Assembly (NCBI RefSeq): GCF_003966335.1 | Contig: NZ_CP034549.1 | Span: forward strand, 1,770,001 to 1,802,000 | Length of the DNA stretch: 32,000 nucleotides | Direction: 5' to 3' | DNA from: Nonlabens ponticola | Lineage (GTDB): Bacteria > Bacteroidota > Bacteroidia > Flavobacteriales > Flavobacteriaceae | Shown here: piece after piece, positions 6,667-28,740 of the stretch | Position numbering within the stretch: position 1 is the first letter of the stretch | How the letters are laid out: the number at the start of each line of letters is the position of its first letter | Notes under the pieces: model-generated | The model's input: the letters and a program-made list of their open reading frames with translations, nothing else | Database searches by the model: none | What the model was told of the DNA's origin: nothing | Position numbers and translations under genes: made by a program

Positions 6667-7974
6667 CTATTTTTGTCGCTCGTATTTACTCATGTAGCGC
6701 TCGTATAAATCTTTTTGCCTGGTGTCCAGCGAGATGTCACGGCCGTCGATAAAGGCGCGAGTCAATTTATTGGTACGCATGTCCAACGCATTGCCCTGTG
6801 ATATGAATAGGGTAGCGCTCTTACCTTCTTCCAGCGAGCCATAATCAGCGTCTATGCCTAGGATCTTGGCAGGATTGAGCGTTATCATCATCAAGGCTTG
6901 TTCCGCATCCACGCCATGGCCAGTGAGCGTTCCTGCATAGAATGGCACGTTGCGCACCTGGTGACGCTCCATACTACCAGAATTCTCCAACGCAACGGTG
7001 ACTCCAGCATCTGCTAGGATTTTTGGAAACTTGTACGGCATGTCAAAGTCGGCGTCCTCACGTGCCGGTAAGTTATGTACACGACCTGCGAGTACGGGAA
7101 CTCCAGCGGCCGCAATGTCACCAGCTATTTCCTGTGCACCACGAGCTCCTACCAGTACTAGGTTTTTTACATTGTTAGCTTTCGCGAAAGCTAACACATC
7201 AACAATCGCCTTCTCACCAGATACATGCATGTACAAGTTTGCATTGCCGTCCAGAACACGTCGCATCGCCTCCATTTTCAAGTCCTTGTCTGCTGGATTG
7301 TCTGTAGATTTATAAGCGACCGCTTGACGCATAAAGTCGCGCAGTGCCTCAATGTCCTCATCATAATCCTTGCTAGGCTCGATAGGCCCGTAATTAGGCC
7401 ACGATCCCGATCTACGGAAGCTGGCAGGCCAGTTCACATGAATACCATCATCCATGCGCACGGCAGCATCTTCCCAGTTCCACGCGTCTAGTTGCACCAC
7501 GCTGGACTGTCCAGAGATGCGACCACCACGCGGTACCGTTTGAGCGATCAATATACCATTGGGCCTCATGGTTTCTACCACGCGAGACTCTGCATTGTAA
7601 GCAATTATACTACGTATATGCGGATTAAAAACTCCCAACTCGCGCTGGTCGTCACTGGCATTTACGGCATCAACTTCTACCAATCCTAGCGTAGTGTTGG
7701 CAGCAATAAAGCCAGGATACACGTGCATTCCTGTGGCATCAATAACCTCACCTTTGGGTGCCATTCTTACCGTGGTAGCATCTGCAATGGCGGTGACTTT
7801 CCCGTTTTCTATAACAATGACTGAATTTTCAATTACCTCGCCATTACCTATATGAGCGGTACCATTCATAATGGTGTAAGCTCCAGTCTGTGGTGCGGCT
7901 GGCATTTGTTGGGCTAGGGCAGTGGTGCCTAGCATCGCCAGTACTATATATAATATGTTTTTCATGTCTTTCAT
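6667..7974 (-). CDS. Amidohydrolase-family protein, exported (HxH motif absent)
   Basis: Start trimmed to MKDMKNILYIVLAMLGTTALAQQ (ATG at 7974; alternative at 7965). Amidohydrolase-like N-terminal beta-sandwich pattern VIENGKV...VIDATGMHVYPGF. The expected HxH position reads ANTTLG. Confidence 0.8.
   Translation of the reverse strand: MKDMKNILYIVLAMLGTTALAQQMPAAPQTGAYTIMNGTAHIGNGEVIENSVIVIENGKVTAIADATTVRMAPKGEVIDATGMHVYPGFIAANTTLGLVEVDAVNASDDQRELGVFNPHIRSIIAYNAESRVVETMRPNGILIAQTVPRGGRISGQSSVVQLDAWNWEDAAVRMDDGIHVNWPASFRRSGSWPNYGPIEPSKDYDEDIEALRDFMRQAVAYKSTDNPADKDLKMEAMRRVLDGNANLYMHVSGEKAIVDVLAFAKANNVKNLVLVGARGAQEIAGDIAAAGVPVLAGRVHNLPAREDADFDMPYKFPKILADAGVTVALENSGSMERHQVRNVPFYAGTLTGHGVDAEQALMMITLNPAKILGIDADYGSLEEGKSATLFISQGNALDMRTNKLTRAFIDGRDISLDTRQKDLYERYMSKYERQK
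7174..7195. repeat. Iterated palindrome copy 1 (core GCTTTCGCGAAAGC 7178-7191, extended to a 22-bp perfect palindrome GTTAGCTTTCGCGAAAGCTAAC)
   Basis: Read directly. Inside the 453-aa amidohydrolase, encodes LAFAKAN. Confidence 0.95.
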
Positions 7975-7975
7975 T

Positions 7976-10954
7976 TTACCAGTGTAGCGTTTCACATTCA
8001 TACAAGGTCTTGGTGGATTGTTTGGCAAGCTGCGTTTTCAAGCCTTTGTTTTTTGCCATAATCATTTCGTTTGTCAACTGTTGACGTTCCTTTTTTATGC
8101 TTTCGCGAAAGCTAACATCACGAGATTTCTCAAAGAACACAATACCATCTACCAGGGTATATTCCGGGATCGCCTTGATGTCTAGCGGATTGTGGTTCCA
8201 CAAAACGATATCTGCATCTTTACCTTCCTTGATGCTACCTACACGGTCGTCGATATGCAGCAGTTTTGCAGGATTGAGTGTGACAAACTTCCAGGCTTCT
8301 TCCTCGCTCACGCCACCGTATTTTACAGCCTTGGCAGCTTCCTGGTTCAAGCGTCGTGACATTTCTGCATCATCACTGTTAAACGCGGTAAGAACGCCTT
8401 GTGAATGCATGATGGCACCATTGTAAGGTATGGCGTCGTTCACTTCATACTTGTAAGCCCACCAGTCGCTAAAGGTTGATCCACCAGCGCCGTGTTCTCT
8501 CATCTTATCAGCCACCTTGTAACCTTCTAGAATATGCGTGAATGTGTTGAGTGTGAAACCGTATTTCTCGGCCACCTTCATCATCATGTTGATCTCGCTC
8601 TGTACATAAGAGTGGCAGGTCACATAGCGCTCGCCGTTGAGAATCTCAACCAGCGTTTCCATCTCCTCATCATAACGGAAGTTGTTATCGCCTCTAGACT
8701 TGTCATATTCCTGCGCACGTGTAAAGTAATCTTCAAAAACCTGCTCGACACCCATGCGCGTTTGCGGGAAACGTATGCCGTTCTGGTATCTGGACTGCTT
8801 CACGTTCTCACCCAGCGCAAACTTGATAAACTTAGGTGAATTGTCATAGATCATCTCCTGCGGGCTATAACCCCATTTAAGCTTGATGATCGCACTACGG
8901 CCACCAATGGGATTGGCACTACCGTGCAGCAGTTGCGAAGTCGTAACGCCACCAGCAAGATCACGGTAGATGTTGATGTCCTCGTGATCAACAACGTCCT
9001 CGATGGTAACCTCGGCAGTACTGTTATGTCCAGCCTCATTTACACCTTGATCAATGGCGATGTGCGAGTGCTCATCAATAATACCACTAGTTAGGTGCAT
9101 GCCGCTGGCATCAACCACTCTAGCGCCACCAGCGCTCAGGTTTTTACCTACTTTAGAAATCTTACCGTTCTTGACCAGTACATCGGTATTCTCAAGAATA
9201 CCAGCATCTTCATTAGTCCATACGGTCGCGTTTTTAAATAGGATGGTTTCTGCTTTGAGTTTTGTTTTAGAGCCGTAAGCCACATTAGGATAGGTCATGT
9301 TGCCTAGATCGGTGATCATTTCTTGATCGGCTTCATCCTCTTTATCGTCATCGTCTTTTTCATCTTCTGCTTTCTTATCGGCTTGTTTTCTAGCGACAAA
9401 GGATCTTTCAATCCCATTAGGTAAGTAAACCTTTCCTTTCAACATCTGCGGATTACTCTCGGTCAATTTCATGCTCCAGCGCGTGTAGGTTTTATCATCA
9501 GCGTCCTTTTGGGATGTCGTGATGGTAATCCAGTCGTCGTTGCGCACGATCTTGCTGCCTAATTTTGTGCTGTCCAGCATGACTTTAACCGTCTTTGCAT
9601 CGCCGCTGATAGCCAATTCATATGTGTCGCCGTTTACTATGGCTTCATAAGTTCCATCCACGTTGAGTAAACCACGATCTTTCAACACATGCTTGGATCC
9701 TTGAACCCAATTTTCATAAACATCAGTGTCTTTTTCAAAAAGCTCGCCACTGGTAACGATAAAGTTTGCGTGCTTTCCTTTTTCCAAGGTTCCAATAGAA
9801 GAACTCAAGTTAAGCAATGCTGCTGGTGTGGTTGTTAGTGCAGCTAGTGCTTGATCTGCGGTCAATCCATATTGCATGGCACGCATCAATTTTGCATGAA
9901 GCTCGTCAGGTGATTTTAAACCATGTGTAGTAATACTGTATTTCACGCCAGCATCGGCCAATTTTTTAGGATTAGCAGGTGCTTGTTTCCACTCACGCAT
10001 GTCAGCGAGATTCACGTACCATTCTTGGTAAGGGTCAGTCACGTCATAAGCATCTGGGAAATTGATCGGTAAAATTAGTTGTGCATTGGTAGCTTTAATG
10101 GCATCCACCATCTCTAGCGCATCTTCACCACCTACAATGACAAATTGCTTGCCTACGCGATCACCGACCTTATCTGCTCTTAATACATTTTTCTTATTTC
10201 CAGCTTCTATGTATTGAACCAGGTTCTTATTGGCATTCAATGCCTCTAGTGAGCGGTCTTTGGTTTTGGAATTGCCAGCGGCATACCAGTCTGCATCAAA
10301 GTGTGATTGACGTAACAAAGCCATAGTTCCCATAAGCGAAGTAGGATAGGACTGGTTCGTCTGTCTACTACGGTCAAATGAGAAAAACTGACCACTCTTA
10401 TTATTCAGGATACGTTGCGAGTCGTCACCATTATTATTTAGCGCGACAACCATACCAGTACCACGAGCGATACCGTCGTGTAAGTGCGTTTGTACCACAC
10501 CATAACCAGCTTTCATCATGCTTTCGGCTTTCTTTGAGTCGTACTCGTAAAAGTCGATGGCATCCTGCTCGGCACGTATGTGGTCGTTCCAGTAAAAACC
10601 TTGTCGACCTTCATCGTATTGTTGACCGCGTGACTCATTCTTAGGAACCGTCATTCCAAAGTCTGCATAGGTCTCAATGAACGATGGGTAAATAAAAGTG
10701 CCGGTAGCATCTTCTACTACGGCATTTTTAGGAATCTTAATGTTGCGACCTACGTCCACAATTTTGCCGTCCTTAATCAGGATCGAGGCGTTTTCTAACT
10801 TCTTTCCCGGACTCGTGATGATAGTCGCACCAGTCAAGGCACGCATCGACTTACTCACTGCCGATATATCATCATTATTGGGAAAGTATTCTTGGCCTTG
10901 CGCGGTCATCGCCGCCATCGCCAGAATGGAAAAAAGTATTTTTTTCATATACAT
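7976..10954 (-). CDS. Large two-module amidohydrolase-family protein, exported
   Basis: 992 aa with signal-like N-terminus (MKKILFSILAMAAMTAQGQ; ATG at 10954 or 10948). N-terminal module IKDGKIVDVG...VEDATGTFIYPSF lacks HxH. C-terminal module VKNGKISKVG...VDASGMHLTSGIIDEHSHIA has it. Confidence 0.85.
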   Translation of the reverse strand: MYMKKILFSILAMAAMTAQGQEYFPNNDDISAVSKSMRALTGATIITSPGKKLENASILIKDGKIVDVGRNIKIPKNAVVEDATGTFIYPSFIETYADFGMTVPKNESRGQQYDEGRQGFYWNDHIRAEQDAIDFYEYDSKKAESMMKAGYGVVQTHLHDGIARGTGMVVALNNNGDDSQRILNNKSGQFFSFDRSRQTNQSYPTSLMGTMALLRQSHFDADWYAAGNSKTKDRSLEALNANKNLVQYIEAGNKKNVLRADKVGDRVGKQFVIVGGEDALEMVDAIKATNAQLILPINFPDAYDVTDPYQEWYVNLADMREWKQAPANPKKLADAGVKYSITTHGLKSPDELHAKLMRAMQYGLTADQALAALTTTPAALLNLSSSIGTLEKGKHANFIVTSGELFEKDTDVYENWVQGSKHVLKDRGLLNVDGTYEAIVNGDTYELAISGDAKTVKVMLDSTKLGSKIVRNDDWITITTSQKDADDKTYTRWSMKLTESNPQMLKGKVYLPNGIERSFVARKQADKKAEDEKDDDDKEDEADQEMITDLGNMTYPNVAYGSKTKLKAETILFKNATVWTNEDAGILENTDVLVKNGKISKVGKNLSAGGARVVDASGMHLTSGIIDEHSHIAIDQGVNEAGHNSTAEVTIEDVVDHEDINIYRDLAGGVTTSQLLHGSANPIGGRSAIIKLKWGYSPQEMIYDNSPKFIKFALGENVKQSRYQNGIRFPQTRMGVEQVFEDYFTRAQEYDKSRGDNNFRYDEEMETLVEILNGERYVTCHSYVQSEINMMMKVAEKYGFTLNTFTHILEGYKVADKMREHGAGGSTFSDWWAYKYEVNDAIPYNGAIMHSQGVLTAFNSDDAEMSRRLNQEAAKAVKYGGVSEEEAWKFVTLNPAKLLHIDDRVGSIKEGKDADIVLWNHNPLDIKAIPEYTLVDGIVFFEKSRDVSFRESIKKERQQLTNEMIMAKNKGLKTQLAKQSTKTLYECETLHW
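8099..8112. repeat. Iterated palindrome copy 2 (GCTTTCGCGAAAGC)
   Basis: Read directly. Inside the 992-aa amidohydrolase in a different frame (SFRES). Confidence 0.95.
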
Positions 10955-13372: not shown

Positions 13373-13776
13373 TCTACCTTCTCATAACGTTCTGCACAGG
13401 CTTCCATACACTGATAGCGTACTTCAAGGATCTTACCATTAAGTTCAAAAGCTGCGATACAGCCGCCTTTATTGAAGCTCTTGGTGGTCATGTCTAGTTC
13501 GGCTGTTTTGCCAGCGGTAAAAAAGTTGCCCACACAAACGTTCTCGTTGGATACAACGGTACCTTCCTTTTTAAAAGTCAAGGTCTTATCGCTATCTGTT
13601 TCTTGAAATTTAGCACTGCCATTACCAGGATCTGCAAGAGAATGAGTGATTCTCCAGGTACCATAAATAGGCGATTTTGATTCGGTAGTATTTGATCCAC
13701 AGGAGACAAAAAGTAGGGCAACTGCGATGATAGTTAGGGCTTTCAACGTGAGTAATTTAAGGTTAAGATACATCAT
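13369..13776 (-). CDS. Small lipoprotein of unknown function
   Basis: 135 aa. Lipobox-like LLFVSCGS after a hydrophobic leader. Confidence 0.65.
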   Translation of the reverse strand: MMYLNLKLLTLKALTIIAVALLFVSCGSNTTESKSPIYGTWRITHSLADPGNGSAKFQETDSDKTLTFKKEGTVVSNENVCVGNFFTAGKTAELDMTTKSFNKGGCIAAFELNGKILEVRYQCMEACAERYEKVD

Positions 13777-13846
13777 TTATCGATATCAGGTCATTTTACA
13801 TTTTCAATCATACTTTGCTATCTTTCCTGTTTATCAATTTATAAGC

Positions 13847-16261
13847 ATGAGAATTCTAGTAATAATTGCAATAATCCTGGCTGGTAGCACCTTAACTTCT
13901 TGTAAGGCGAGAAAAAATGTTGATGATTTAGCTTTCGCGAAAGCGCAATCAACCAAAACACCTCAACAATTCAAGGGCTTCTTCAATTTCAATTATGATG
14001 TAAACAAGGGCGCTATATCGCTAGAAGTCAAAGATCTAGATAGCGAATTTCTCTACGTACACGCGCTGGCAACAGGATTGGGATCCAATGATATAGGATT
14101 GGATCGAGGCCAGTTGGGTGGTGGCGTTGTGGTAAAATGGATCAAGGCAGGCAACAAATTACTGCTCGTTCAACCCAATTTATCCTATCGTGCAATTACC
14201 GAAAATAACGAAGAACAAGCCAGCGTGGAAGAGGCTTTTGCACGATCTGTACTGTATGGATTTGAGATCAAAAAGACCGTTGATGACGTCCATACCATTG
14301 ACTTGACACCATTCCTACTAGAAGATGCTCATGGCGTGGCACAACGATTAAAATCTAGAAACCAGGGAATCTACAAAATAGATAAATCGCGCAGCGCATT
14401 GTGGATGGAAAATACTATGGCATTTCCCGATAATGTGGAGTTTCAAGCCATGCTCACATTCACTGGTGAGCCTAAAGGTAGCGACCTGCGTAGCGTGGCT
14501 CCAGATGCGAGCAGCGTGAGTGTGATCCAGCATCACAGTTTTGTACGCTTGCCTGATGATCAGTATGAACCTAGAGAATTTCACCCGAGATCAGGATCAT
14601 TTTACACTAGTTATCTAGATTACAGTACACCTATCTCGCAGCCCATTCGGAAGCGATTGATCACCAGACATAGACTCGCCAAAAAGAATCCAGAACTAGC
14701 TATGAGTGAGCCAGTAGAGCCTATCATCTACTATCTGGATCCTGGTACGCCACAACCAGTGCGCGATGCGCTTATCGATGGTGCCAGTTGGTGGAACGAG
14801 GCTTTTGAAGCTGCAGGATATAAAAATGCCTTTCAGGTAAAAATGTTACCTGCTGATGCACATCCACTAGATGTGCGCTACAATGTGATACAATGGGTGC
14901 ATCGCAGTACGCGTGGCTGGAGTTATGGTGGCTCGATAACAGATCCTAGAACTGGCGAAATCATAAAAGGGCATGTTTCATTAGGTAGTTTGCGCATACG
15001 TCAGGATTACATGCTGGCGCAAGGAATGCTAGATAAGCCTTTTGCAAACGGTCAGGAATCACCAGAAATGCTAGAAATGGCACTGGCTCGTATCAGACAA
15101 CTAGGCGCGCATGAGGTAGGTCACACGCTGGGTTTTGCCCATAATTTTGCTGCGAGCATGAGCGATCGCGCTAGTGTCATGGATTATCCGCATCCCAAGT
15201 ATGATTTGAAAAATGGCAAGATTGATCTATCTGATGCTTATGATACAGGCATAGGTGAATGGGATAAATTGACGGTGCAATATTCTTATGGCGATCCAGC
15301 GGCTGGACAGTCGCAGGAAGAATACTTGCAATCCATTTTACAGAAAGCCATTGATCAAGATTTGCTCTTCATTACAGATAGTGATGCGCGCGCTAGCAGC
15401 GGTGCGAGTGCAGACGCACATTTATGGGATAGCGGAGAAAGCGCCGTCGATGAATTGGAACGTATCCTTAAGGTACGTCAGGTAGCTATGAAGCAATTTG
15501 GCCTGGATAATATTCCTAATGGGCAACCTATCAGTGTTCTGGAAGATGTTTTCGTACCAGTCTATTTCTCACACAGGTATCAGGTAGAGGCGGCTAGCAA
15601 GTTATTAGGTGGTATGAGATACAGCTATGCTATTAAAGGAGACCCTAAGTTCACTTATGTGCAAAAAGCAGAGCACGAAAAAGCGCTAAAAGTATTATTA
15701 AACACACTTGATGTGAATCAATTGACCATACCAGAAGATTTGTTGACTTTGTTTGCGCCTAGGTCTTATGGGTACAATCGCGACCGGGAAAGCTTCAAAT
15801 CCCAAACGGGCGTCGCTTTTGATCCAGTTGCTGCAGCTGTCACTAGTGCTGACATCACACTGGATCTCATGCTCAATGCAACAAGACTCAACCGCATCGC
15901 ACAACAAGAAATTTATGGTGATAATCTTGAATTGTCTGAGATGATTGAAGAACTAACCGATAAGATTTTCTCTAACGACACAAACACAGCTTATGAGCAA
16001 TTAATTACTGACAGAATCAAAGAACAATACGTCAACAAATTGCTGATGGCTACTAATTCATCCAGTATCAATGCTGTGGTTAAAGGCCAAATTCTTGCTC
16101 AAATCAGTAGGATAGAGAGCCTATTAAGTAAATCGAGTAATCCAACGGATAAGGTATTGCTGCAAAGCATTGAACAAGCAAGACAGCATCCTGAAATGAT
16201 CAAAGAATTACCAGTTGCAAAAATTCCAGATGGTAGTCCGATAGGTAGTTGTGGAATGTAG
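13847..16261 (+). CDS. Secreted zinc-dependent metalloprotease (lipoprotein-type signal)
   Basis: Start trimmed to ATG 13847 (MRILVIIAIILAGSTLTSCK). HExxH...H motif in LGAHEVGHTLGFAHNF. About 800 aa. Confidence 0.85.
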   Translation: MRILVIIAIILAGSTLTSCKARKNVDDLAFAKAQSTKTPQQFKGFFNFNYDVNKGAISLEVKDLDSEFLYVHALATGLGSNDIGLDRGQLGGGVVVKWIKAGNKLLLVQPNLSYRAITENNEEQASVEEAFARSVLYGFEIKKTVDDVHTIDLTPFLLEDAHGVAQRLKSRNQGIYKIDKSRSALWMENTMAFPDNVEFQAMLTFTGEPKGSDLRSVAPDASSVSVIQHHSFVRLPDDQYEPREFHPRSGSFYTSYLDYSTPISQPIRKRLITRHRLAKKNPELAMSEPVEPIIYYLDPGTPQPVRDALIDGASWWNEAFEAAGYKNAFQVKMLPADAHPLDVRYNVIQWVHRSTRGWSYGGSITDPRTGEIIKGHVSLGSLRIRQDYMLAQGMLDKPFANGQESPEMLEMALARIRQLGAHEVGHTLGFAHNFAASMSDRASVMDYPHPKYDLKNGKIDLSDAYDTGIGEWDKLTVQYSYGDPAAGQSQEEYLQSILQKAIDQDLLFITDSDARASSGASADAHLWDSGESAVDELERILKVRQVAMKQFGLDNIPNGQPISVLEDVFVPVYFSHRYQVEAASKLLGGMRYSYAIKGDPKFTYVQKAEHEKALKVLLNTLDVNQLTIPEDLLTLFAPRSYGYNRDRESFKSQTGVAFDPVAAAVTSADITLDLMLNATRLNRIAQQEIYGDNLELSEMIEELTDKIFSNDTNTAYEQLITDRIKEQYVNKLLMATNSSSINAVVKGQILAQISRIESLLSKSSNPTDKVLLQSIEQARQHPEMIKELPVAKIPDGSPIGSCGM
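13931..13944. repeat. Iterated palindrome copy 3 (GCTTTCGCGAAAGC)
   Basis: Read directly. Inside the metalloprotease, encodes LAFAKAQ. Confidence 0.95.
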
Positions 16262-18943: not shown

Positions 18944-20095
18944 ATGAAACAATCTATCTATTTCTTATTGACTTTTACGTCGTTCATTCTAAATGCACAA
19001 CAACAGTATTTCCCACAATCAACCGCTAGCTGGGAAACTATTTCCTATCAAGAAGCTGGACTGGATGCAGATAAGATGGATGATGTGGTAGCTTTCGCGA
19101 AAGCTAACGAGTACAAAGGCTCCAGAGATTTGAGAATAGCTATTCTGGATGGATTCAAGAAAGAACCATTCCATGAGATATTGGGTCCTACCAAAAAGCG
19201 CGGTGGTCCAGCAGGCATGATCTTGAAAAATGGAAAGATCGTCAAGGCTTGGGGCGACGTAAATCGAGTGGACATGACATTTTCTGTCACAAAAAGTTTT
19301 CTATCAACCGTTGCAGGTATAGCATTGGATAAAGGATTAATTGCTAGCGAGAATGACACCGTAGCAAATTATGTTTGGGATGGCACCTTTGCTGGTAAGC
19401 AGAATTCGCAGATCACTTGGAGCCAATTATTACAACAAAACAGCGCCTGGCAAGGTGAGTTGTATGGCGTCAAGGACTGGGCAGACCGACCACCACGTGA
19501 TGGTGACGTTGATGATTGGCAGTATGCGCAGCCTCATAAACCAGGTACGGTCATGGAATATAACGATGTGCGAGTAAATGTGCTAGCATACAGTTTATTG
19601 CAGGTGCATCGCAAACCGCTGCCTGTGGTCCTCAAGGAGAATATCATGGATCCAATAGGCGCGAGCATAACCTGGCGTTGGAAAGGCTATGATAACGCAT
19701 GGGAAACGGTAGATGGTCTGCAAATGAAGTCGGTTACTGGTGGTGGCCACAGCGGTGCTGGAATGTTTATTAATACAACAGACATGGCGAGATTTGGCTT
19801 GCTATTTATCAATAATGGTAACTGGAACGGCAAGCAATTGATCTCACGGGAATTTATAGATCGCGCTTTGACACCATCGACTCCAAATCCCAATTACGGA
19901 TACATGTGGTGGCTCAATAATGCGGATGGATCACGGCACTGGAATGGAGTAGGCGAGAACGTTTTTTATGCCGCTGGCTTTGGCGGTAACTTTATCATTG
20001 TTGATCGCGAGCACGACCTGGTGATCGTTACCAGGTGGTTGGAGCCTAGCAAGGTAGAGGAGTTTATGCAGCTGATTACTGCTGCTATTGACTGA
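18944..20095 (+). CDS. Serine hydrolase, beta-lactamase/transpeptidase-like family, exported
   Basis: Start trimmed to ATG 18944 (MKQSIYFLLTFTSFILNAQQ). SxxK motif in FSVTKSF. Confidence 0.75.
   Translation: MKQSIYFLLTFTSFILNAQQQYFPQSTASWETISYQEAGLDADKMDDVVAFAKANEYKGSRDLRIAILDGFKKEPFHEILGPTKKRGGPAGMILKNGKIVKAWGDVNRVDMTFSVTKSFLSTVAGIALDKGLIASENDTVANYVWDGTFAGKQNSQITWSQLLQQNSAWQGELYGVKDWADRPPRDGDVDDWQYAQPHKPGTVMEYNDVRVNVLAYSLLQVHRKPLPVVLKENIMDPIGASITWRWKGYDNAWETVDGLQMKSVTGGGHSGAGMFINTTDMARFGLLFINNGNWNGKQLISREFIDRALTPSTPNPNYGYMWWLNNADGSRHWNGVGENVFYAAGFGGNFIIVDREHDLVIVTRWLEPSKVEEFMQLITAAID
19089..19106. repeat. Iterated palindrome copy 4 (core 19091-19104, extended TAGCTTTCGCGAAAGCTA)
   Basis: Read directly. 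Inside the serine hydrolase, encodes VAFAKAN. Confidence 0.95.
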
Positions 20096-20143: not shown

Positions 20144-22870
20144 TTGACCGAATACCCAAAAGATATCCAATTCAAGTATCCGTGGAGAAAATATCAAGAA
20201 AAAGTGCTGCGTGAACTTAATCATCACTTAAGGGATAAACACCTACATATTATCGCACCTCCAGGATCAGGTAAGACTGTTTTGGGAATTGAAGTTGCTA
20301 TAAGATTAAACAAACCTACCCTGATTCTTGGACCAACTTTGGCCATACGTAACCAATGGATACAACGGTTTTGTGAGCTTTTTCTACAAACCAATGTCAC
20401 GCCAGATTGGATTTCGCGTGATATTAGAAATCCTGATTTTCTAACCGTGGTCACTTATCAAGGTTTACACGCAGCGTGCAATAATTGGAATCTTATAGAA
20501 GAAGAGTTTGAGGAAGAAGAGGATGCTGATGTTGAAGAAACACCATCAAGATCCTCTCGATCTGAACTTTCCAAGATTGTAGGATTGCTCCAATCTAAAA
20601 ACATTGGGACTATTGTGGTAGACGAGGCACATCACCTGAAAAAAGAATGGTGGCATACTTTGATACAGATTAAGTCTGAATTAGATCCAGTAATTGTTGG
20701 ACTAACAGCCACGCCACCTTATGATGTGAACTATACTCAATGGCATCGATACATAAGTTTAAATGGCCCGATTGATACCGAAATCTCAGTTCCAGAATTG
20801 GTAATTGAAGAAGACTTATGTCCGCATCAGGATTATGTCCATTTTACTATGCCTACCAAGGATGAGCGTCGTAAAATCATCAATTTCAGAACCAATGTTG
20901 GTAAACTGTATAGAGAGGTTAAGGCTGATGACACACTTGCAATAGCAGTAGAGCAGCATCCTATCTGGCAGAACCCATTGGATCATTTAGATTGGATCTA
21001 TGACAATCTTCAGTACTATTCGGCTATTTTAATATTCTTGAAATCTTTTGGTAAAGAAATACCAGAGTCACATCAAGAGGTCATCAATGACAAAAATGCT
21101 GAGATTCCCGCTTTTGATTATAGATGGGCTGAAGAATTATTGGAATTTTATCTGTTTAGGGAAGAAGAAGCCTTTCCCGATTTTATAGAACACCAAAAAA
21201 GACTGTTAAGCAGACTCAAAAGATACGGAGCTGTTGAACGTAATAAAGTCAATTTTCTATACAATAGAAATCTGGCTGGTTTGCTTACATCAAGTATTAG
21301 CAAAATTAATAGCATTCAAGAAATCGTCGATTTTGAACGTTCACATCTAGGTTGCGATTTACGCCTGGTTATTCTTTCGGATTATATCCGTAAGGAGTAT
21401 CTAATTAATGAAAATGAGAACAGTCTAGATCTAAATAAAATGGGAGTCATCCCAATTTTTGAGAAGTTGAGAAGATCTAATAGGGGTAAATCAAAAATAG
21501 GAGTTCTGACAGGTTCGATTATTATTATTCCTGACAACGCCTACGGTGCTTTACAAGCCAAAGCGTTCAAAAATGGTCTTGATGAGATCAACACAGTTAC
21601 CTTAACCTATGATAATGAATACCTAATCATAAATCGCACAGAGCAGAACAAAAATCAAATCGTGCATCTAATTACAGAACTCTTTGAAGATGGAGAAATT
21701 GAAATTCTTGTGGGTACAAAATCTTTGCTGGGTGAAGGTTGGGATGCACCGTGTATCAACACATTGATTTTGGCAACATTTGTTGGGTCCTTTGTCTTGT
21801 CTAATCAGATGCGAGGTAGAGCCATCAGGACTCAAAATCTAAACTTAGATAAAACTGCCAATATATGGCATCTAGCTTGTATAGATAGCTCATCGCCTAA
21901 TGGTGGTACTGACTTTGATCTTTTAAAAAGACGCTTTAGAGGTTTTGTAGGTGTGTCAAATAAAGAGAAAGGCGGTATAGAAAATGGCATGGATCGCTTG
22001 AATCTACCAGAATTAGTTCATCTTGAAAAGCAAGCAATACAGGCGAACCTGGAAATGTTCAAACAGGCTGGCAATAGAAAAAATCTAAAACAACGATGGG
22101 ATGATGCCTTAAAAACAGGAGTAACGCTAGTAGAGGAACTTAAATTACCGTTTCCCAATAAGACCAATTACCAAGCGGTAAAAACCATTCATCTCAATGA
22201 TACTATAACAAACTTTATCTACACGCTTATTGCAGCGATAGTAACGTTCTTCTTTGAAAATTTTTTAGGTGCTTTTAAAGATTTGTTCTTTGTAAAAACT
22301 ACTTGGCAATTTTATACCATTCTCTTAGTGCCACTGATGATTCTGATTGTGACCTTTGGCGGTAAAACACTCAAAGCCTTTAGGTTATATTTCAAATACC
22401 GAGATATTTCAAAGGACTTGCATAAAATTGGAGACGTCTTATTACGTTCTTTAATTCATGCTAACGTTATTAAATCGAGCTACTCTAGCTATAAGGTGAT
22501 TACATCGGTCAATGAGTATGGGACAGTTTATTGTCATCTAGAAGGTGGAACTACCTATGATAAGTCAACTTTCATAAATGCGCTTCAGGAGATTGTCTCA
22601 GTAGTTGATAATCCTAGATGCATCCTAATAAGGAAGAATAAACTGATGGGTTATCTGAGCCAAAAAGACTATCATGCCATTCCAGAAGTTTTGGGTCGCA
22701 ATAAGAAAACAGCGTTATTTTTTAAAGACACTTGGGAGCAATACGTGGGTGATTGTGAGTTGATCTTTACAAGAACCGTAGAAGGTAGAAAGTTTGTTCT
22801 CACGTCAAGAATGAAGTCTCTTGCATCCCAATTTGATGAAGAGGCTGAACATGTCAATATATGGAGGTAG
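20144..22870 (+). CDS. SF2 DEAH-box helicase-family protein with two predicted transmembrane helices in the C-terminal third
   Basis: 908 aa with TTG start as called. Motif I APPGSGKT, motif II VVDEAHH, motif III LTATP, motif VI QMRGRAIR. Hydrophobic segments ITNFIYTLIAAIVTFFFENFLGAF and WQFYTILLVPLMILIVTFGG (about 22204-22365). Confidence 0.8.
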   Translation: MTEYPKDIQFKYPWRKYQEKVLRELNHHLRDKHLHIIAPPGSGKTVLGIEVAIRLNKPTLILGPTLAIRNQWIQRFCELFLQTNVTPDWISRDIRNPDFLTVVTYQGLHAACNNWNLIEEEFEEEEDADVEETPSRSSRSELSKIVGLLQSKNIGTIVVDEAHHLKKEWWHTLIQIKSELDPVIVGLTATPPYDVNYTQWHRYISLNGPIDTEISVPELVIEEDLCPHQDYVHFTMPTKDERRKIINFRTNVGKLYREVKADDTLAIAVEQHPIWQNPLDHLDWIYDNLQYYSAILIFLKSFGKEIPESHQEVINDKNAEIPAFDYRWAEELLEFYLFREEEAFPDFIEHQKRLLSRLKRYGAVERNKVNFLYNRNLAGLLTSSISKINSIQEIVDFERSHLGCDLRLVILSDYIRKEYLINENENSLDLNKMGVIPIFEKLRRSNRGKSKIGVLTGSIIIIPDNAYGALQAKAFKNGLDEINTVTLTYDNEYLIINRTEQNKNQIVHLITELFEDGEIEILVGTKSLLGEGWDAPCINTLILATFVGSFVLSNQMRGRAIRTQNLNLDKTANIWHLACIDSSSPNGGTDFDLLKRRFRGFVGVSNKEKGGIENGMDRLNLPELVHLEKQAIQANLEMFKQAGNRKNLKQRWDDALKTGVTLVEELKLPFPNKTNYQAVKTIHLNDTITNFIYTLIAAIVTFFFENFLGAFKDLFFVKTTWQFYTILLVPLMILIVTFGGKTLKAFRLYFKYRDISKDLHKIGDVLLRSLIHANVIKSSYSSYKVITSVNEYGTVYCHLEGGTTYDKSTFINALQEIVSVVDNPRCILIRKNKLMGYLSQKDYHAIPEVLGRNKKTALFFKDTWEQYVGDCELIFTRTVEGRKFVLTSRMKSLASQFDEEAEHVNIWR

Positions 22871-22993: not shown

Positions 22994-25288
22994 CTAGCTG
23001 TCTTTTACATCATAACGATCCAGCATCATGACCTTGTCCCATGCGGCGACAAAATCATGGATAAAACGATCATTTCCATCATCTGCAGCATAAACCTCGG
23101 CGATGTTGCGTAATTGGGCATTTGACCCAAAAACTAGATCATTGCGTGTTGCCGTATAATCTACCTGACCATTATCGCGTCTCTTTAAATCAAAGAGCAA
23201 CTTGCTCGAACTTTTAGGCACCCATTCATAATCCATGCTGGTAAGCACCTGGAAAAAGTCGTTTGTCAATTGACCTGGGCGCTGCGTGAATACACCATGT
23301 TTAGAATAGTCATAATTCTGCTCAAGTACTCGTAATCCGCCTGTAAGAACGGTCCATTCTGGCGCGCTCAACGATAATAGATTTGCTCTGTCTAGAAAGA
23401 TGCGCTCCTGAGCCACATGATAACCTACATTGTTGTTGTGGTAGTTTTTAAAGCCATCGGATACCGGTTTTAACCAATCAAAACTTTCTACATCAGTCCA
23501 TTCAGGGCTAGCATCCATGCGGCCTGGCGTGAAAGGTACTTTTATAGTTTTTCCTGCATCGCTCGCTGCTTTTTCTATGGCGGCACAACCACCTAGCACC
23601 ACAAGATCTGCAAGCGATATTTTTATATCGCCTGATGATTGATTGAAATCTGATTGGATATTTTTCAATGTATCCAGCACTTTGTTCAATTCTTTAGGTC
23701 TATTGAGGTCCCAATTGTTTTGCGGTTCCAGCGCTATTCTTGCTCCATTGGCGCCACCGCGCTTATCACTATGTCTGTAAGTGGATGCAGCTGACCATGC
23801 AGCATTTACAAGTGCAGACACGCTCAAACTGCTGTCAAGAATCTGCTTTTTAAGATCTGATATTTGTTGGTCATTCACCAATTTATGATCTACCGCAGGT
23901 ATCGGGTCTTGCCAGATTAGATCTTCAGCTGGTACTTCTGTTCCTAGGTAACGATCCTTAGGTCCCATGTCACGATGGGTTAGTTTGTACCACGCTTTCG
24001 CGAAAGCGGTAGTGAAATAATCAAAATCTTCCATGAATTTCTCACACACCTTGCGATAAGCCGGATCTACCTTGAGCGCTAGGTCAGACGTCATCATCAT
24101 GATAGGCTCTGACTTACCAGGAATATGTGCATCTGGTGTTTGTGGAGCATCCTCTTGAACTGGTGTCCATTGAATCGCACCAATCGGACTTTTAGTCTGT
24201 TTGTAATCGTATTTGAATAGGTTGATCAGGTAATCATTATCCCAATTGGTTGGATTTGATGTCCACGAACCCTCGATACCATTGGTCATCGTATTTTCCG
24301 CATTACCGTTGCCTACTGGATTATGCCAGCCAAAACCTTGTGCCTCCATAGGTGCTGCTTCTGGTGCTGCTCCCAATTTGTCAGGTTCTACCATACCATG
24401 ACTTTTTCCAAAGGCGTGACCACCAGCAATAAGCGCCACAGTCTCTTCATCATTCATCGCCATACGCGCAAAAGATTCCCGTATGTTTCTTGCACTGTCC
24501 ATAGGATCACCGTTAGCGCCAGGTCCTTCTGGATTTACATAAATTAGGTTGGAGTGCGTCGCAGCTAGCGGATTCTCAAGATCGTGGTATTCTTCCTTAG
24601 GATCACCTTTCCATCGCAGGTTATTGTTCACCATCTCTTCTGGATGACCCTTGCGGTTGACACCAGTTTGCGATTCTTCATATTTCTTGCCGTCCCAAAA
24701 TTCTGGACCCCAATAGGTACTGCGATCTGGTTCCCATGCGTCGCGGCGACCGCCGGCAAAACCATAAGTAGGAAAGCCCATGATCTCTAGCGCGCAGTTA
24801 CCTGTGAGGACGATCAAATCTGCCCATGAGAGTGCCGCACCATATTTTTTCTTTATAGGCCAGATAAGTCGTTGCGACTTATCAATGTTACCATTGTCCC
24901 ACCAGGAATTAATAGGCGCAAAACGTTGCATGCCCTGACCAGCGCCGCCGCGACCGTCTGCGATGCGATAGGTACCAGCACTATGCCACGCCATGCGTAT
25001 CATTTGCGGTCCATAATTGCCATAATCTGCAGGCCACCAGTCTTGAGAACTCACTAGAACCTCTTTGATATCTTTCTTGAGTTGATCATAGTCCAGGCTA
25101 TTAAACGCAGCCTTATAATCCTCATCACTCAAAGGGTTGGAGATGGGTTGTTCCTGGTGCAAGAATTCCACTTGTAGTCTGTTGGGCCACCAATCATCAG
25201 TCGTAGGTGTGGATACAATGGCGCCGCCTATACGTGTACCTCTAAAGGGGCACATTGCTAGGTTTTCTGGGTTGCTTATATCTTTCAT
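22994..25288 (-). CDS. katG: Catalase-peroxidase
   Basis: Start trimmed to ATG 25288 ([15 protein letters not shown]). Hallmark KatG sequences [37 protein letters not shown]. Two-domain length of about 764 aa. Confidence 0.97.
23993..24008. repeat. Iterated palindrome copy 5 (core 23994-24007, extended CGCTTTCGCGAAAGCG)
   Basis: Read directly. Inside katG, encodes TAFAKAW. Confidence 0.95.
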
Positions 25289-25535
25289 AGATGTAATTTG
25301 ATAGGTTATAGGTGAAAGCGCATTAAGAAACGATGCTTTACCGCATTGCTTAAAGCTATAAAAAAATAGCATCATTCAAATGATCTTCCTATGCTTTGTG
25401 GTAATATTAGTATTAGAAAAAAATAAATTATCAACTAGTACTGCCTCGTTGAAATTAGTCAAAAAGCCGTAAGTTTTCCAATATAATACAAATCGGTTTA
25501 TCTGAAATTGCGACAATGGATGTTGCGAGAAGTGT

Positions 25536-26306
25536 TTAACCTATTCTATCACTGACTATTTTTTTTCTCAGCAGTTTTCGTGAGAAAAAATCTCTAGGGA
25601 AGTTTTTTGATACATAACTAGTCTGCATATGTGTTGCACGGTATTTTGAACAATCACGCATAAAGGAGTCTATTCTTTTTTCAAAAAGATCACCACCATA
25701 GACTGGATAACGCTGTGAATCCTGGTGGTCATGACTATAAATATTCTCTTTGAATACTGCGGTCTCGATCAGATAGGCTTGATCTGAGAAGCCTTGACTG
25801 ATGGCAAATGGTTCTACTACTTTCGTTGATTCATTTTGAACCTGATCAAAGGCAAAATTCCAAGCAGGATTCACGCAGATCACGTCCTTATTATTTTTGA
25901 GCAGTTGCACACCATCGGGAATCCACGTTGCCTGATCTTTCGGTATCCAGCTATCTCCAGATAGGTGGAACAGAAATGGAGTAGGACATTGTTGTATACC
26001 AACAATTTCAGCTATGGAGTAGACGTATCCTGCGCCAAAATGCGTCTTATCCAATTGAAAATGTTCTAGTGTTTCTTTTTCATGATCATGTACTGCATGG
26101 TAGCTGTCAATGACTCCATTATTAATAAGTCGATCACAATGCTTTTTTACTCCGTTAAGATCTTTGACATTATTGATGATGATCTGTCTGTGATCAAACT
26201 CATGGTTACAGTAGTCTATGACTTTCTTGAGATAATTGTTCTTGAGAATAAACTCCCAATCCTTTTCCCATACTTTGGTCTCAAAAGTAACTTGATCTGT
26301 AAGCAT
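25536..26306 (-). CDS. Hypothetical protein, AT-rich gene
   Basis: 256-aa ORF with ATG start, 3 nt downstream of the preceding gene. No motif I can name with confidence. Confidence 0.55.
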   Translation of the reverse strand: MLTDQVTFETKVWEKDWEFILKNNYLKKVIDYCNHEFDHRQIIINNVKDLNGVKKHCDRLINNGVIDSYHAVHDHEKETLEHFQLDKTHFGAGYVYSIAEIVGIQQCPTPFLFHLSGDSWIPKDQATWIPDGVQLLKNNKDVICVNPAWNFAFDQVQNESTKVVEPFAISQGFSDQAYLIETAVFKENIYSHDHQDSQRYPVYGGDLFEKRIDSFMRDCSKYRATHMQTSYVSKNFPRDFFSRKLLRKKIVSDRIG

Positions 26307-26309
26307 GGA

Positions 26310-26909
26310 CTATACAATTATTCCTAAGCCATTATGATGAGGGTAGTTATATACCTTCTTACCCGTCTTTTTGGCAATGTCATAAACAGCATGACGTACT
26401 TCCATGAACGATTCTGTATCATGAAAAATAGCACAAGAAGAATGCGTAGCTGCCCATAATCCACATTGATATGTGTGTTTATAATCGTGGATGATGTCTA
26501 CATGGATGAGATCATGTTGATCTTCATTGTTTTTGATATACTCTTGATAGGTAGACTGGATCAGGTGTATGTTGTTAAATTTTTCTACCGATTCGCTGGT
26601 TGACTCATAATGATCTTGCTTAATTCCAGAATGGTCATCACCTATGAATGTGTCCACACCTATAACTTTATCAAAATAATTGGAGAGTGCCACTGTGGAG
26701 AAACAAAATTCTGTACCAAATTCCAGACAGCTATCAGTATTAAGATTAAATCGTTCTATAATATCTGGAATGATTTGTTCCAATCCTTTCCATGCAGAGT
26801 GTATCTCAAGCATTTTAGATGCTTGCTGCAGCTGTTTGGGCTCATAAGTAGGCAGATTATATTTTGCTCTTAAGGCCTTGTTTTTAATTCTTTTTACAAA
26901 ATACTTCAT
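26310..26909 (-). CDS. Probable class I SAM-dependent methyltransferase (Methyltransf_24-like)
   Basis: 199 aa. CLEFGTEFCFSTVAL resembles SAM-binding motif I. DLIHVDIIHDYKHTY resembles the D-x-I-D-x-x-H-x-Y region of this family. Assignment by pattern only. Confidence 0.5.
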   Translation of the reverse strand: MKYFVKRIKNKALRAKYNLPTYEPKQLQQASKMLEIHSAWKGLEQIIPDIIERFNLNTDSCLEFGTEFCFSTVALSNYFDKVIGVDTFIGDDHSGIKQDHYESTSESVEKFNNIHLIQSTYQEYIKNNEDQHDLIHVDIIHDYKHTYQCGLWAATHSSCAIFHDTESFMEVRHAVYDIAKKTGKKVYNYPHHNGLGIIV

Positions 26910-26939
26910 CGCGCTCCATGTGATTATAAGTTGCAGGTG

Positions 26940-28670
26940 CTAAAATAACTTTTTTCGCACCGCTAAAATTCCAGTTGTGCAAAGGAAAAATACTCCTAGA
27001 AGTACAAAACCGATCATGGTCTCGCCATAAATCAGTTTGCCGATCGCGAATAACAAGCTGTAAACACCAGCGACACCGAGTAAAAAGGCAATAGTTTTAA
27101 ACTGAAAATTGTGAAATTTTGACTGGTCACCATGAATTGTTTGGTGAAATGTCTTTAGAGTTTCCGCACTGCTTGATGATGTCACAAACGTCACCGCTAA
27201 CCATGCGACGCTGGTAATCAATACGTTGCTGCATATTTTCTCATAACTTGCAAGATCAGGAAATAGTGCCGCATCATATCGGGCATTGATGAAAAACAGT
27301 ATCGCCATGATAAAGGAAACGATCATCGCAGTAATCTCTGACCACGGATTGATACGATACCAAAACCATCGCAATATGAATAACAATCCAGATCCAGCAC
27401 CTATTTGTATGACGAGATCAAAGGCATCTTTTGCCTCTTCCAACACTAATGACAGCAGGCCAGCCAAAATCATCATTACAATGATACTAGTTCTACCTAT
27501 GATGATTTTTTGTTTTTCGCTGGCGTCTCTATTAATAAAGCGTGCATAAAAGTCATTCACGATGTAACTGGAACCCCAATTAAGATGTGTTGAAATCGTA
27601 CTCATAAATGCTGCGACAAGCGAGGTCACTACAAGACCTAGCAATCCTGCGGGCAAGAAAACGAGCATCGCTGGATAACTCAAGTCATTTTTTATGAATT
27701 GCGATTCCAGTTCTGGAAAGGCGTTAGCCAGTGCGTCTAGATTGGGATAAATGATCAATGATGCCAAACCTATAATGATCCAGGGCCATGGTCTTAGCGC
27801 ATAGTGAGCCAAATTGAAAAATAGCACTGCCCACGTGGCATTTTTTTCATCCTTAGCAGCCAGCATGCGCTGTGCTACATAGCCACCACCACCAGGTTCT
27901 GCACCAGGATACCAAGTGCTCCACCACTGTACGGCGATAGGTATGATAAAAATGGCAGCAACTAGCTCAGTATTTGAGAAGTCGGGTAGCATGTCAATTT
28001 TTCCAGCAACATTGGGATGCGTTATGAGATTTTGCATACCGCCTATTTCTGGCATGTCAAGAATGTAGATGGTAGCCCAGATAGAACCTACCATAGCAAT
28101 TATGAATTGTATGAAGTCTGTAATAAGAACTCCTTTCAAACCACCCAACAATGAATAGGCAACGGTAACTATGGATGCAATGATAAGTGTGCGTCCAGCA
28201 CTGAAGCCGAACATCACATGACCTATCTTGATAGCGGCCAGACAAACGGTTCCCATGATGATGACGTTGAAGATGACACCTAAATAAATCGCTCTAAAAC
28301 CTCTCAAGAATGCGGCGCTTTTCCCGTCATATCTCAATTCATAAAATTCAAGATCTGTTGTGATGCCGCTGCGTCGCCATAATCGTGCGTAGAAAAAGAC
28401 CGTCAGCATTCCTGTCAATAAAAATGCCCACCATTCCCAATTTCCAGCGACACCAGTCGTACGCACTATTCCTGCAACTAGATTAGGCGTATCGGCAGCA
28501 AAGGTGGTTGCCACCATGGAAACTCCTAGCAACCACCACGGCATGGATCTGCCCGATAAGAAAAAGGAGTCGGCATTCTTAGAGCTTTGGCGTGATACCA
28601 CGATACCTACAACGAGAGATATTACAAAAAAAGCGATGATGATCGCAAAATCGATGAACTCTAGAGCCAT
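26940..28670 (-). CDS. Sodium:solute symporter (SSS) family transporter
   Basis: 576 aa with many hydrophobic helices. Family-typical stretches GRSMPWWLLG, GGGYVAQRMLAAKDEKNA. Confidence 0.85.
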   Translation of the reverse strand: MALEFIDFAIIIAFFVISLVVGIVVSRQSSKNADSFFLSGRSMPWWLLGVSMVATTFAADTPNLVAGIVRTTGVAGNWEWWAFLLTGMLTVFFYARLWRRSGITTDLEFYELRYDGKSAAFLRGFRAIYLGVIFNVIIMGTVCLAAIKIGHVMFGFSAGRTLIIASIVTVAYSLLGGLKGVLITDFIQFIIAMVGSIWATIYILDMPEIGGMQNLITHPNVAGKIDMLPDFSNTELVAAIFIIPIAVQWWSTWYPGAEPGGGGYVAQRMLAAKDEKNATWAVLFFNLAHYALRPWPWIIIGLASLIIYPNLDALANAFPELESQFIKNDLSYPAMLVFLPAGLLGLVVTSLVAAFMSTISTHLNWGSSYIVNDFYARFINRDASEKQKIIIGRTSIIVMMILAGLLSLVLEEAKDAFDLVIQIGAGSGLLFILRWFWYRINPWSEITAMIVSFIMAILFFINARYDAALFPDLASYEKICSNVLITSVAWLAVTFVTSSSSAETLKTFHQTIHGDQSKFHNFQFKTIAFLLGVAGVYSLLFAIGKLIYGETMIGFVLLGVFFLCTTGILAVRKKLF

Positions 28671-28724
28671 GGTTTACTTGTGTTAAAAATTTATGAATGA
28701 TAAATATATAGGAATATGTGAGCA

Positions 28725-28740
28725 CGCTTTCGCGAAAGCG
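28725..28740. repeat. Iterated palindrome copy 6 (core 28726-28739, extended CGCTTTCGCGAAAGCG), intergenic
   Basis: Read directly. In the divergent region between the symporter and pfkA. Confidence 0.95.

Follow-up and report, generated by a model that had tools for sequence, protein, structure and literature searches.

A 14-bp palindrome, GCTTTCGCGAAAGC, is a lineage-specific, hyper-abundant genomic word in Nonlabens and Dokdonia

The 32,000-nucleotide stretch of the Nonlabens ponticola chromosome considered here (contig NZ_CP034549.1, positions 1,770,001 to 1,802,000; referred to below as the window) carries six exact copies of the 14-bp perfect palindrome GCTTTCGCGAAAGC, at positions 7178, 8099, 13931, 19091, 23994, and 28726; all had been listed in an earlier note on this DNA, and all were recovered by a search of the window. 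Five lie in nonhomologous genes, and Pfam, from which the identities of these genes were taken, agrees with the earlier description of the hosts as two amidohydrolases, a metalloprotease, a serine hydrolase, and katG. The first copy (core at 7178 to 7191) is embedded in a 24-bp perfect palindrome, TGTTAGCTTTCGCGAAAGCTAACA, at 7173 to 7196 and reads DVL-AFAKA-NN in an amidohydrolase gene (6667 to 8028, minus strand). The second (8099 to 8112) is read in frame +1 of a gene for a large amidohydrolase (7976 to 10954, minus strand), as V-SFRES-I, 45 residues from the C terminus. A met-zincin with DUF5117 and DUF4953 (13727 to 16261, plus strand) holds the third (13931 to 13944) close to its N terminus, as L-AFAKA-Q, and a beta-lactamase-family hydrolase (18899 to 20095, plus strand) holds the fourth (core at 19091 to 19104, within the 18-bp palindrome TAGCTTTCGCGAAAGCTA at 19089 to 19106) as V-AFAKA-N. 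The fifth (core at 23994 to 24007, within the 16-bp palindrome CGCTTTCGCGAAAGCG at 23993 to 24008) reads T-AFAKA-W in katG (22994 to 25375, minus strand), where it overlies the FAKAW-type motif that is natural to this enzyme. The sixth (core at 28726 to 28739, within a 16-bp palindrome at 28725 to 28740) is intergenic, 55 nucleotides from the start of a sodium:solute symporter gene (26940 to 28670, minus strand) and 152 nucleotides upstream of pfkA (28892 to 29878, plus strand). The extended palindromes reported previously at 23993 and 28725 are indeed 16 bp long, and the first of the extended set measures 24 bp rather than 22 bp. The identical codon usage claimed for four copies is also real, each being GCT TTC GCG AAA GCN (AFAKA); the remaining genic copy is AGC TTT CGC GAA AGC (SFRES).

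Within the window the word is all or none. No variant with one or two mismatches was found there, and all occurrences of the octamers TTCGCGAA, GCGAAAGC, and GCTTTCGC (six of six in each case) fall inside a full copy. When up to two mismatches were allowed, dinucleotide-preserving shuffles of the window gave a mean of 0.09 matches, and six were reached in 0 of 100. The core includes both TCGCGA and CGCG, as had been pointed out; the hexamer TCGCGA occurs 11 times in the window, on 5 occasions outside any copy of the word, and by itself is not enriched in the window or in the Nonlabens loci described below.

Abundance was examined in N. ponticola itself through the 32-kb window and in its relatives through syntenic loci of about 22 kb. 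KatG, the large amidohydrolase, and PfkA encoded in the window match N. ponticola proteins at 100% identity. Exact copies number four in N. agnitus, N. antarcticus, Nonlabens sp. SY33080, and N. xiamenensis, five in Nonlabens sp. Hel1_33_55 and Nonlabens sp. YIK11, and six in N. marinus. A scan seeded with the PfkA protein covered 80 Flavobacteriaceae loci (1.5 Mb), of which the three closest (86 to 88% PfkA identity), belonging to Nonlabens sp. M30B61 and two uncultured Flavobacteriaceae, carried five, three, and five copies. The other 77 loci (1.43 Mb, including Winogradskyella, Maribacter, Flavobacterium, Tenacibaculum, Polaribacter, and Olleya) had none, and a Leeuwenhoekiella locus likewise had none, giving 0 copies in a total of about 78 loci and about 1.45 Mb from other genera. 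Across Nonlabens there were 51 exact copies in 253 kb from 11 lineages, or 1 per 5.0 kb, against 0.0004 to 0.0008 copies expected under order-1 and order-3 Markov models, an excess of about 5 orders of magnitude; extrapolation of this density gives approximately 600 copies per 2.9-Mb genome. No other dispersed GC-containing (non-AT-rich) 12-mer repeated in those other genera was found, so that the phenomenon is not a family-wide habit that employs different words.

A second scan, of metagenomes, was seeded with the flank variant GCTTTCGCGAAAGCTAAC and returned 116 marine stretches totaling 850 kb, with 217 further exact copies. Exact-protein look-ups assigned multicopy stretches to Dokdonia (four stretches, L310, L229, L230, and L258), to Nonlabens dokdonensis, and to an N. 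marinus-like genome; in the Dokdonia contigs, all of them motif seeded, the density, not counting the seed copy, was about 1 per 4 kb. Hyper-abundance of the word thus extends to at least two genera, and the frequency comparison and the survey of related genera that the earlier note had proposed gave a count far above Markov expectation and an enrichment limited to Nonlabens plus Dokdonia. Dokdonia PfkA was not among the 120 sequences closest to Nonlabens PfkA, and genera whose PfkA is closer to that of Nonlabens than is the Dokdonia protein are without the word; either the trait was transferred from one genus to another, or PfkA may reflect relationship poorly.

Codon alignments of orthologues of pfkA, gap, and katG have no length differences at word sites, and the word stands in place of AFKMA, AYEKA, AFKKA, AFEKA, or AFSKA with lengths unchanged. 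Codons 89 to 93 of pfkA form the exact word (AFAKA) in N. agnitus, Hel1_33_55, M30B61, and YIK11 and encode AYEKA and AYENM in two more distant lineages; N. ponticola has a proto-site there and not a copy (29156 to 29170, plus strand; GCC TTC AAA ATG GCT, AFKMA). Another proto-site occupies codons 261 to 265 of gap, the gene for GAPDH (30738 to 30752, plus strand; GCC TTT AAA AAA GCA, AFKKA); the exact word is present at this position only in Hel1_33_55, and other lineages have AFEKA, AFKKA, AFKEA, or VFKDA. At the katG site N. ponticola and N. antarcticus carry the word at the same codons, and N. agnitus (GCC TTT TCT AAA GCT, AFSKA) and Hel1_33_55 (GCA TTT GCG AAA GCC, AFAKA) do not; since these relatives encode AFSKA or AFAKA by other codons, N. 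ponticola gained its katG copy by substitution. Copies are thus built in place, at look-alike sites, by point substitutions, several of them nonsynonymous and in well-conserved enzymes. DNA-level selection or a copy-and-convert mechanism had been suggested previously; maintenance at the DNA level and origin in place are borne out, and the gap-free codon alignments argue against the insertion of a mobile unit.

Once formed, the word is held invariant at the DNA level across species while neighboring synonymous sites are scrambled. The met-zincin copy is base identical in six Nonlabens species whose flanking residues are fully diverged (NVDDL, MVLNF, LVFCT, TLDKF), and the copy in the beta-lactamase-family hydrolase is identical in six species, five of them with ATC...GCG flanks and N. 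ponticola with GTA...GCT, a flank change that is symmetric. At the site of the first copy, N. marinus also has the word (ATC GCT TTC GCG AAA GCG), flanked by C/G where N. ponticola has A/T, and SY33080 (VTFIKKNN) and N. xiamenensis (LNFIDEHG) are without it; at the site of the second, SY33080 and N. xiamenensis have it too, read as RFRES. Of the 14 closest homologues of the second protein (64 to 100% identity), 7 have [RS]FRES at this position, those with names being Nonlabens, and six other genera have QxRE[AS]-like proto-sites in its stead. Where three species share an amino acid, the codon is identical in 30% of columns (Ala, 17%; Phe, 55%; Lys, 46%), and the chance that four codons would be conserved across three species is about 0.007 (0.7%) per site. 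Decayed copies are scarce: 51 exact copies in the 253 kb of Nonlabens DNA compare with 6 having one mismatch and 2 having two, and 185 exact copies at unique metagenomic sites compare with 21 having one mismatch. Near-miss variants are in consequence about 9 times rarer than perfect copies, whereas free decay would leave about as many one-off relics as perfect words.

The word leaves a clear imprint on proteins. In open frames of at least 120 amino acids, AFAKA occurs 15 times in 45,112 residues of Nonlabens and 0 times in 504,382 residues of other Flavobacteriaceae genera, an 11-fold larger sample, and [RS]FRES occurs 9 times in the former set and 0 times in the latter. Thirteen of the 15 Nonlabens AFAKA peptides are encoded by the exact word, in favor of the shared codon use that the earlier note had asked to be checked, and the remaining two differ from it by one and three bases. 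AFAKA is the commonest reading and not the sole one: [RS]FRES and xLSRK are also produced, and between a fifth and a third of copies are located outside long open reading frames (ORFs). Copies in stop-free frames of at least 150 amino acids in the window and five relatives divide 13/7/2 among the three frames, and metagenomic sites, seeds excluded, divide 28/12/18; 6 of 28 copies in these six loci are outside long ORFs, with a somewhat larger share in metagenomic fragments. Because three frames are used, intergenic copies exist, AFAKA is written with the codons of the word, and the peptide is missing from the other genera, the peptide follows from the DNA and not the reverse. In the met-zincin the word encodes AFA-KA at about residues 17 to 21 of annotated orthologues (window 13931 to 13944; L119, 20174; L120, 21025), and AFA fits an A-x-A signal-peptidase site at the end of a signal peptide, judging from the sequence, so the word may be accommodated there.

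These observations leave little room for ordinary causes, namely, a transcription factor operator, an AFAKA peptide motif, a mobile element of the repetitive extragenic palindromic (REP) kind, or an assembly artifact. One copy does lie in the divergent symporter/pfkA promoter region, and katG encodes FAKAW naturally, but each of the four possibilities is already contradicted. An operator is at odds with the location of about 80% of copies inside genes at arbitrary positions and with the lack of conservation of the pfkA-upstream copy in relatives. Selection on the peptide is at odds with the use of three frames, the intergenic copies, the katG gene of a relative that has AFAKA by other codons, and the lack of AFAKA in other genera. 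A REP element or miniature inverted-repeat transposable element would not be expected to leave sites free of insertions and deletions, a common sequence that ends some 2 to 4 bases beyond the core, and, in the isolate loci, about 80% of copies in long ORFs. The artifact that the earlier note had itself raised is excluded by the occurrence of the word at orthologous codons in many independently assembled genomes of up to six species. We consider this group of explanations scarcely credible.

Preferences extend slightly beyond the 14 bp. At position +/-8, 81 of the 90 half-flanks from Nonlabens other than N. ponticola carry G 3' of the core (C when 5' of it), as do 164 of 188 from metagenomes, which gives the consensus 16-mer CGCTTTCGCGAAAGCG. 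An A/T preference at +/-10 is perhaps motif specific. A-rich extended flanks were considered as part of the recognized sequence and rejected, as their peaks at +4, +7, +10, and +13 have a period of 3 and are most simply explained by third-codon-position composition; no sequence common to the intergenic copies beyond the core was found. N. ponticola departs from its relatives: T/A is found in 6 of its 12 half-flanks and in 3 of the 90 from the other Nonlabens (Fisher P = 4.9e-5), and at four orthologous sites it shows C-to-A and/or G-to-T changes, one by way of an Arg-to-Ser replacement and two symmetric on both sides. With six sites to go by, this looks like a shifted recognition preference, or "dialect." The dyad symmetry, the symmetric covariation of the flanks, and the N. 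ponticola dialect together lead us to infer a homodimeric, sequence-specific reader of double-stranded DNA that would coevolve with the word.

The dyad could alternatively act in RNA, with the same GCUUUCGCGAAAGC hairpin forming in transcripts of either strand and serving as a site for an RNase or RNA-binding protein or as a translational pause. Most copies do lie in transcribed regions, the palindrome makes gene orientation irrelevant, and the extended 24-mers fold, as DNA, at -7.9 to -8.7 kcal/mol. Hairpins formed by the 14- and 16-mers, however, have no extra stability over shuffled controls in nearest-neighbor folding (z = -0.2 and -0.9), no Rfam match was found in the window, and the copies are exact Watson-Crick palindromes without G-U-type variants; furthermore, position within genes is unconstrained, and a spacing along the DNA that is even irrespective of operons (see below) has no rationale in RNA. 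A role in RNA is accordingly very improbable. Each strand of the palindrome ends in GCGAAAGC (for example, window 7184 to 7191), a sequence that Hirao and colleagues reportedly described as an unusually stable DNA mini-hairpin, an effect that the nearest-neighbor folding used here does not model.

Copies are more evenly spaced than chance would allow. Over all Nonlabens loci, each of about 21 to 25 kb and holding three to six copies, the coefficient of variation of the gaps was 0.48 against a null median of 0.84 from random placement of the same numbers (P < 5e-5). A largely independent set, composed of the window and loci L121 to L123, gave P = 0.0016, and the window alone gave P = 0.057; across tests the coefficient ranged from 0.44 to 0.53, with null values of 0.82 to 0.84. 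Turnover of copies also seems to respect spacing. Relatives have no copy in the symporter/pfkA spacer, and four of them carry the copy at codon 89 within pfkA; N. ponticola is without the pfkA-internal copy but has one approximately 430 bp away, in the upstream spacer. The extra katG copy of N. ponticola is found where lineage-specific insertions lengthen the interval. We are highly confident that abundance, origin by substitution, invariance at the DNA level, even spacing, and rarity of near misses hold jointly. In Nonlabens and Dokdonia the word, usually seen as the 16-mer CGCTTTCGCGAAAGCG, is a genomic signal specific to the lineage; it is neither a feature of genes, nor a mobile element, nor an artifact. 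On the best reading of these data it would be kept by selection or molecular drive and read as a palindrome by a dimeric protein.

Viral sequences add to this picture. Among the matches listed in a scan of viral contigs with the 14-mer, low-GC contigs with portal, protease, capsid, and HNH genes have two to three copies each, some at orthologous positions, and one of these word-bearing contigs is a Nonlabens tegetincola prophage; the matches listed were otherwise mostly single chance or gene-specific ones. Related phage contigs (about 65% GC, about 52 kb; L001, L010, L013, L017, L019, L026, and others) have one copy in the identical context cttgccacgacgGCTTTCGCGAAAGCcgcgatcggctc; this is a conserved gene segment with no relation to the enrichment in flavobacteria, and it shows that single matches elsewhere are ordinary. 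Two lytic phages of Nonlabens, P12024S and P12024L (JQ823122 and JQ823123), have 0 copies in 35.7 and 35.0 kb. Long-term genome residents, that is, prophages, acquire the word, and the lytic phages sampled are without it. TCGCGA is also missing from both lytic phages (0 in about 35 kb each, where we estimate some 3 to 4 from composition), each of which encodes a DNA methyltransferase; this may reflect avoidance of a host activity directed at the central hexamer of the palindrome.

Such an activity is the basis of another explanation, in which near matches would be converted into perfect copies by a methyltransferase with TCGCGA or CGCG as its target, aided by a mismatch-specific repair nuclease, and the word would be a functionless by-product. 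The presence of both subsites in the core and the hint provided by the lytic phages are in keeping with it, as is the precedent of HIP1 (highly iterated palindrome 1; GCGATCGC) of the cyanobacteria, which two reports tie to two orphan methyltransferases (PMC4390886; 10.64898/2026.06.24.733823). Methyltransferases and Vsr-type repair, on the other hand, read 4 to 8 bp and not 14 to 16 bp, the hexamer TCGCGA shows no enrichment of its own and is found freely apart from the word, and conversion would have to be very efficient to yield nine perfect copies for every one-off copy. Neutral replenishment, moreover, predicts neither even spacing nor base-perfect orthologous sites, an argument that has been made for HIP1 (PMC5861425). 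We regard the by-product explanation as improbable.

HIP1 is in several respects the nearest likeness, being a hyper-abundant perfect palindrome that is mostly intragenic, conserved between genomes, and nonrandomly spaced, and the comparison drawn in the earlier note with HIP1 and uptake signals stands: abundance and site conservation are of the HIP type, and most published properties of uptake sequences are found as well. The Nonlabens word differs from HIP1 in its unrelated sequence, in being nearly twice as long (about 30 versus 16 bits) and some 5 to 10 times less dense, in its restriction to two genera of Flavobacteriaceae rather than occurrence in most of a phylum, and in an even spacing of about 5 kb instead of a 10- to 90-kb periodicity; HIP1 has cognate methyltransferases, and for the Nonlabens word we know of none. 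A likeness to Chi, which had also been proposed, is unlikely, given that a perfect palindrome carries no strand polarity and that signals of the Chi type, or of the type of the FtsK-orienting polar sequences (KOPS), are asymmetric 5- to 8-mers with strand bias.

Dispersed palindromes of this format also organize chromosomes: parS, the Noc-binding sites, and matS are perfect or near-perfect palindromes of 13 to 16 bp, read by dimers and often located inside unrelated genes. The word might correspondingly be a chromosome structure site, bound about every 5 kb by a dimeric nucleoid-associated or ParB/Noc-like protein that anchors loops, sets topological-domain boundaries, or organizes the nucleoid, with selection both creating and keeping the sites. 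A perfect dyad of 14 to 16 bp is just the format of parS and Noc sites, and even spacing, conserved orthologous sites with few decayed copies, the apparent replacement of a lost copy nearby (pfkA internal versus upstream), and the extra katG copy in a lengthened interval would all be expected of such a site. From evidence of similar kinds, Xu, Lawrence, and Durand concluded that HIP1 has a role in chromosome structure (PMC5861425); the conservation of HIP1 between genomes, inside ORFs and in the DNA between them, had been taken as a sign of selection. By our own calculation, however, the information content of the Nonlabens word is about 29 to 32 bits, when about 12 bits would be enough for some 600 sites in 2.9 Mb, so that roughly 30 bits far exceed what a protein would need within its own genome. 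The known ParB, Noc, and MatP systems, in addition, use tens and not hundreds of sites, with a few to about 70 to 100 per genome that are confined to chromosome domains, as opposed to about 600 even ones, and the half-site GCTTTCG, compared by eye, has no in-register match to a parS or Noc site. Prophages would have no obvious reason to gain and keep copies of a structural site. We think this explanation rather unlikely as it stands, while ranking it nearly as likely as the one that we place first.

The explanation ranked first is that the word works as a tag of self DNA for uptake or recombination, akin to the uptake signal sequences (USS) of Pasteurellaceae and the DNA uptake sequences (DUS) of Neisseriaceae; we advance it tentatively and would not give it an even chance. 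The published description of uptake sequences comprises a 200- to 1,000-fold excess, origin by mutation and recombination and not by insertion, even spacing, a biased reading frame, enrichment of the encoded peptides, and a lack of the sequences in genes that have no homologues (PMC2817400, PMC7811141), and modeling indicates that uptake bias alone can yield such distributions (PMC7811141). Like USS and DUS, the Nonlabens word is a clade-specific exact word with hundreds of copies and a vast overrepresentation, which arises by point mutation and recombination in coding and intergenic sites, favors a reading frame, enriches peptides, and is spaced more evenly than chance; its flank variants between Nonlabens species resemble the dialects of DUS. 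All of the published properties but one are seen, the counts in foreign DNA being too small to tell, and for this reason a USS-like tag is placed ahead of its competitors. Under this proposal the word would mark DNA fragments as self, and fragments with at least one copy would have the advantage during uptake or subsequent recombination. Biased transmission (molecular drive) or selection would then spread any allele that generates a copy or makes one perfect, most rapidly in DNA with no other copy close by, and even spacing, frame bias, and an enriched peptide would result. An excess of bits would be expected of such a tag, which must stand out against environmental DNA. The more specific version, in which a 16-bp palindromic tag would serve transformation or recombination in marine Flavobacteriaceae through a dimeric receptor whose preference drifts between species, as the N. 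ponticola dialect suggests, is slightly more doubtful. Within the family, natural competence with a preference for own DNA is known only from Riemerella, where k-mers of up to 10 bp were examined and the most overrepresented ones were left as open candidates for a signal (PMC7965970).

Several considerations weigh against a self-DNA tag. Substitution origin, conservation, even spacing, and clade specificity are predicted equally by a selected role in chromosome structure. We know of no report of natural competence in Nonlabens or Dokdonia. The uptake sequences described so far lack palindromic symmetry (PMC2817400), whereas the Nonlabens word is a perfect palindrome, and it is longer than the cores of USS and DUS (14 to 16 bp versus 9 to 12 bp) and about 5 times less dense (1 per 5 kb versus about 1 per kb). 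It further differs from them in having proportionally fewer one-off variants and a host in the phylum Bacteroidota, and USS and DUS are defined by preferential uptake and a receptor. USS and DUS are lacking from lineage-specific DNA; the 33%-GC cassette array and recombinase at the start of the window (1 to 6600, which had correctly been described as free of copies) and two low-GC segments (20144 to 22870 and 25536 to 26909) have 0 copies in a total of 10.7 kb, where about 2.2 would be expected, a deficit that is not significant alone. The two lytic phages are close relatives of each other, and the presence of the word in their host is not established. The metagenomic scan seeded with GCTTTCGCGAAAGCTAAC contained no dialect of the N. 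ponticola type, only G-dialect genomes with an occasional TAAC flank. The copy number per genome is an extrapolation; the loci sampled without regard to the motif are all 20-kb pieces of few neighborhoods, several of them sharing ancestry, and the spacing P values are inflated by the use of 20-kb samples and of sites shared by descent.

The copy-free parts of the window have features of their own. Positions 1 to 6600 are integron-like, at 33% GC versus about 43% for the neighboring DNA, with repeats of about 140 nucleotides between cassette ORFs (50 to 196, 806 to 943, 1745 to 1882, 3947 to 4084, and 4687 to 4833), a common motif of the form ...AAATGTTTTACAACGGT (795 to 823, 4677 to 4705, and 5600 to 5628), and a tyrosine recombinase gene (5732 to 6565; Phage_integrase and SAM_4 domains). 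One cassette ORF encodes a Ser/Thr protein kinase by Pfam (1892 to 3388), and most others have no Pfam match. An exact 16-nucleotide direct repeat, GTATATGCAAACCTTT, at 5681 to 5696 and 5728 to 5743 (47 nucleotides apart), has its two units on either side of where the recombinase gene begins; it may represent an attI-type or promoter element. The segments at 20144 to 22870 and 25536 to 26909 have a GC content of 37% and are missing from these positions in the syntenic loci of relatives, and on this basis they look like N. ponticola-specific insertions; one encodes a 908-amino-acid ResIII/DEAD helicase, and in the other, two ORFs (25536 to 26306 and 26310 to 26909) separate katG from the symporter gene, the first of which was scanned and has no Pfam match.

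In summary, we found no publication on this sequence, on its 10-bp core in this context, or on an iterated palindrome in Nonlabens, Dokdonia, or Flavobacteria; clade-specific hyper-abundant DNA words are a known kind, to which uptake signals and HIP1 belong. To our knowledge the well-established classes are few: two families of Proteobacteria have uptake signals, Chi and KOPS exemplify the polar signals, and cyanobacteria have HIP1, whose function has been under debate for three decades. Links to methylation, to nucleoid structure, and recently to transformation have been proposed for HIP1 (PMC4390886, PMC5861425, 10.64898/2026.06.24.733823). The Nonlabens and Dokdonia word provides an independent example in a third phylum, and a sharp one, as a dyad of 14 to 16 bp that occurs about once per 5 kb, evenly and in nearly all-or-none form, with a force sufficient to rewrite conserved enzymes (PfkA, GAPDH, and KatG) to AFAKA. 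Its hosts are cultivable model marine bacteria, Dokdonia among them, its length and specificity ease the search for the reader protein, and its restricted range, with two genera and a dialect in one species, gives power to phylogenetic profiling. As a near-diagnostic marker, it also allows metagenomic contigs and prophages to be assigned to the clade. Should the word promote the uptake or recombination of DNA, it could improve the genetic tools available for these bacteria, and if it is indeed a tag of self DNA, no sequence-specific signal for uptake or self-recognition would have been known before it outside the Proteobacteria, and it would be the first palindromic one and a tractable parallel to the 30-year-old puzzle of HIP1.

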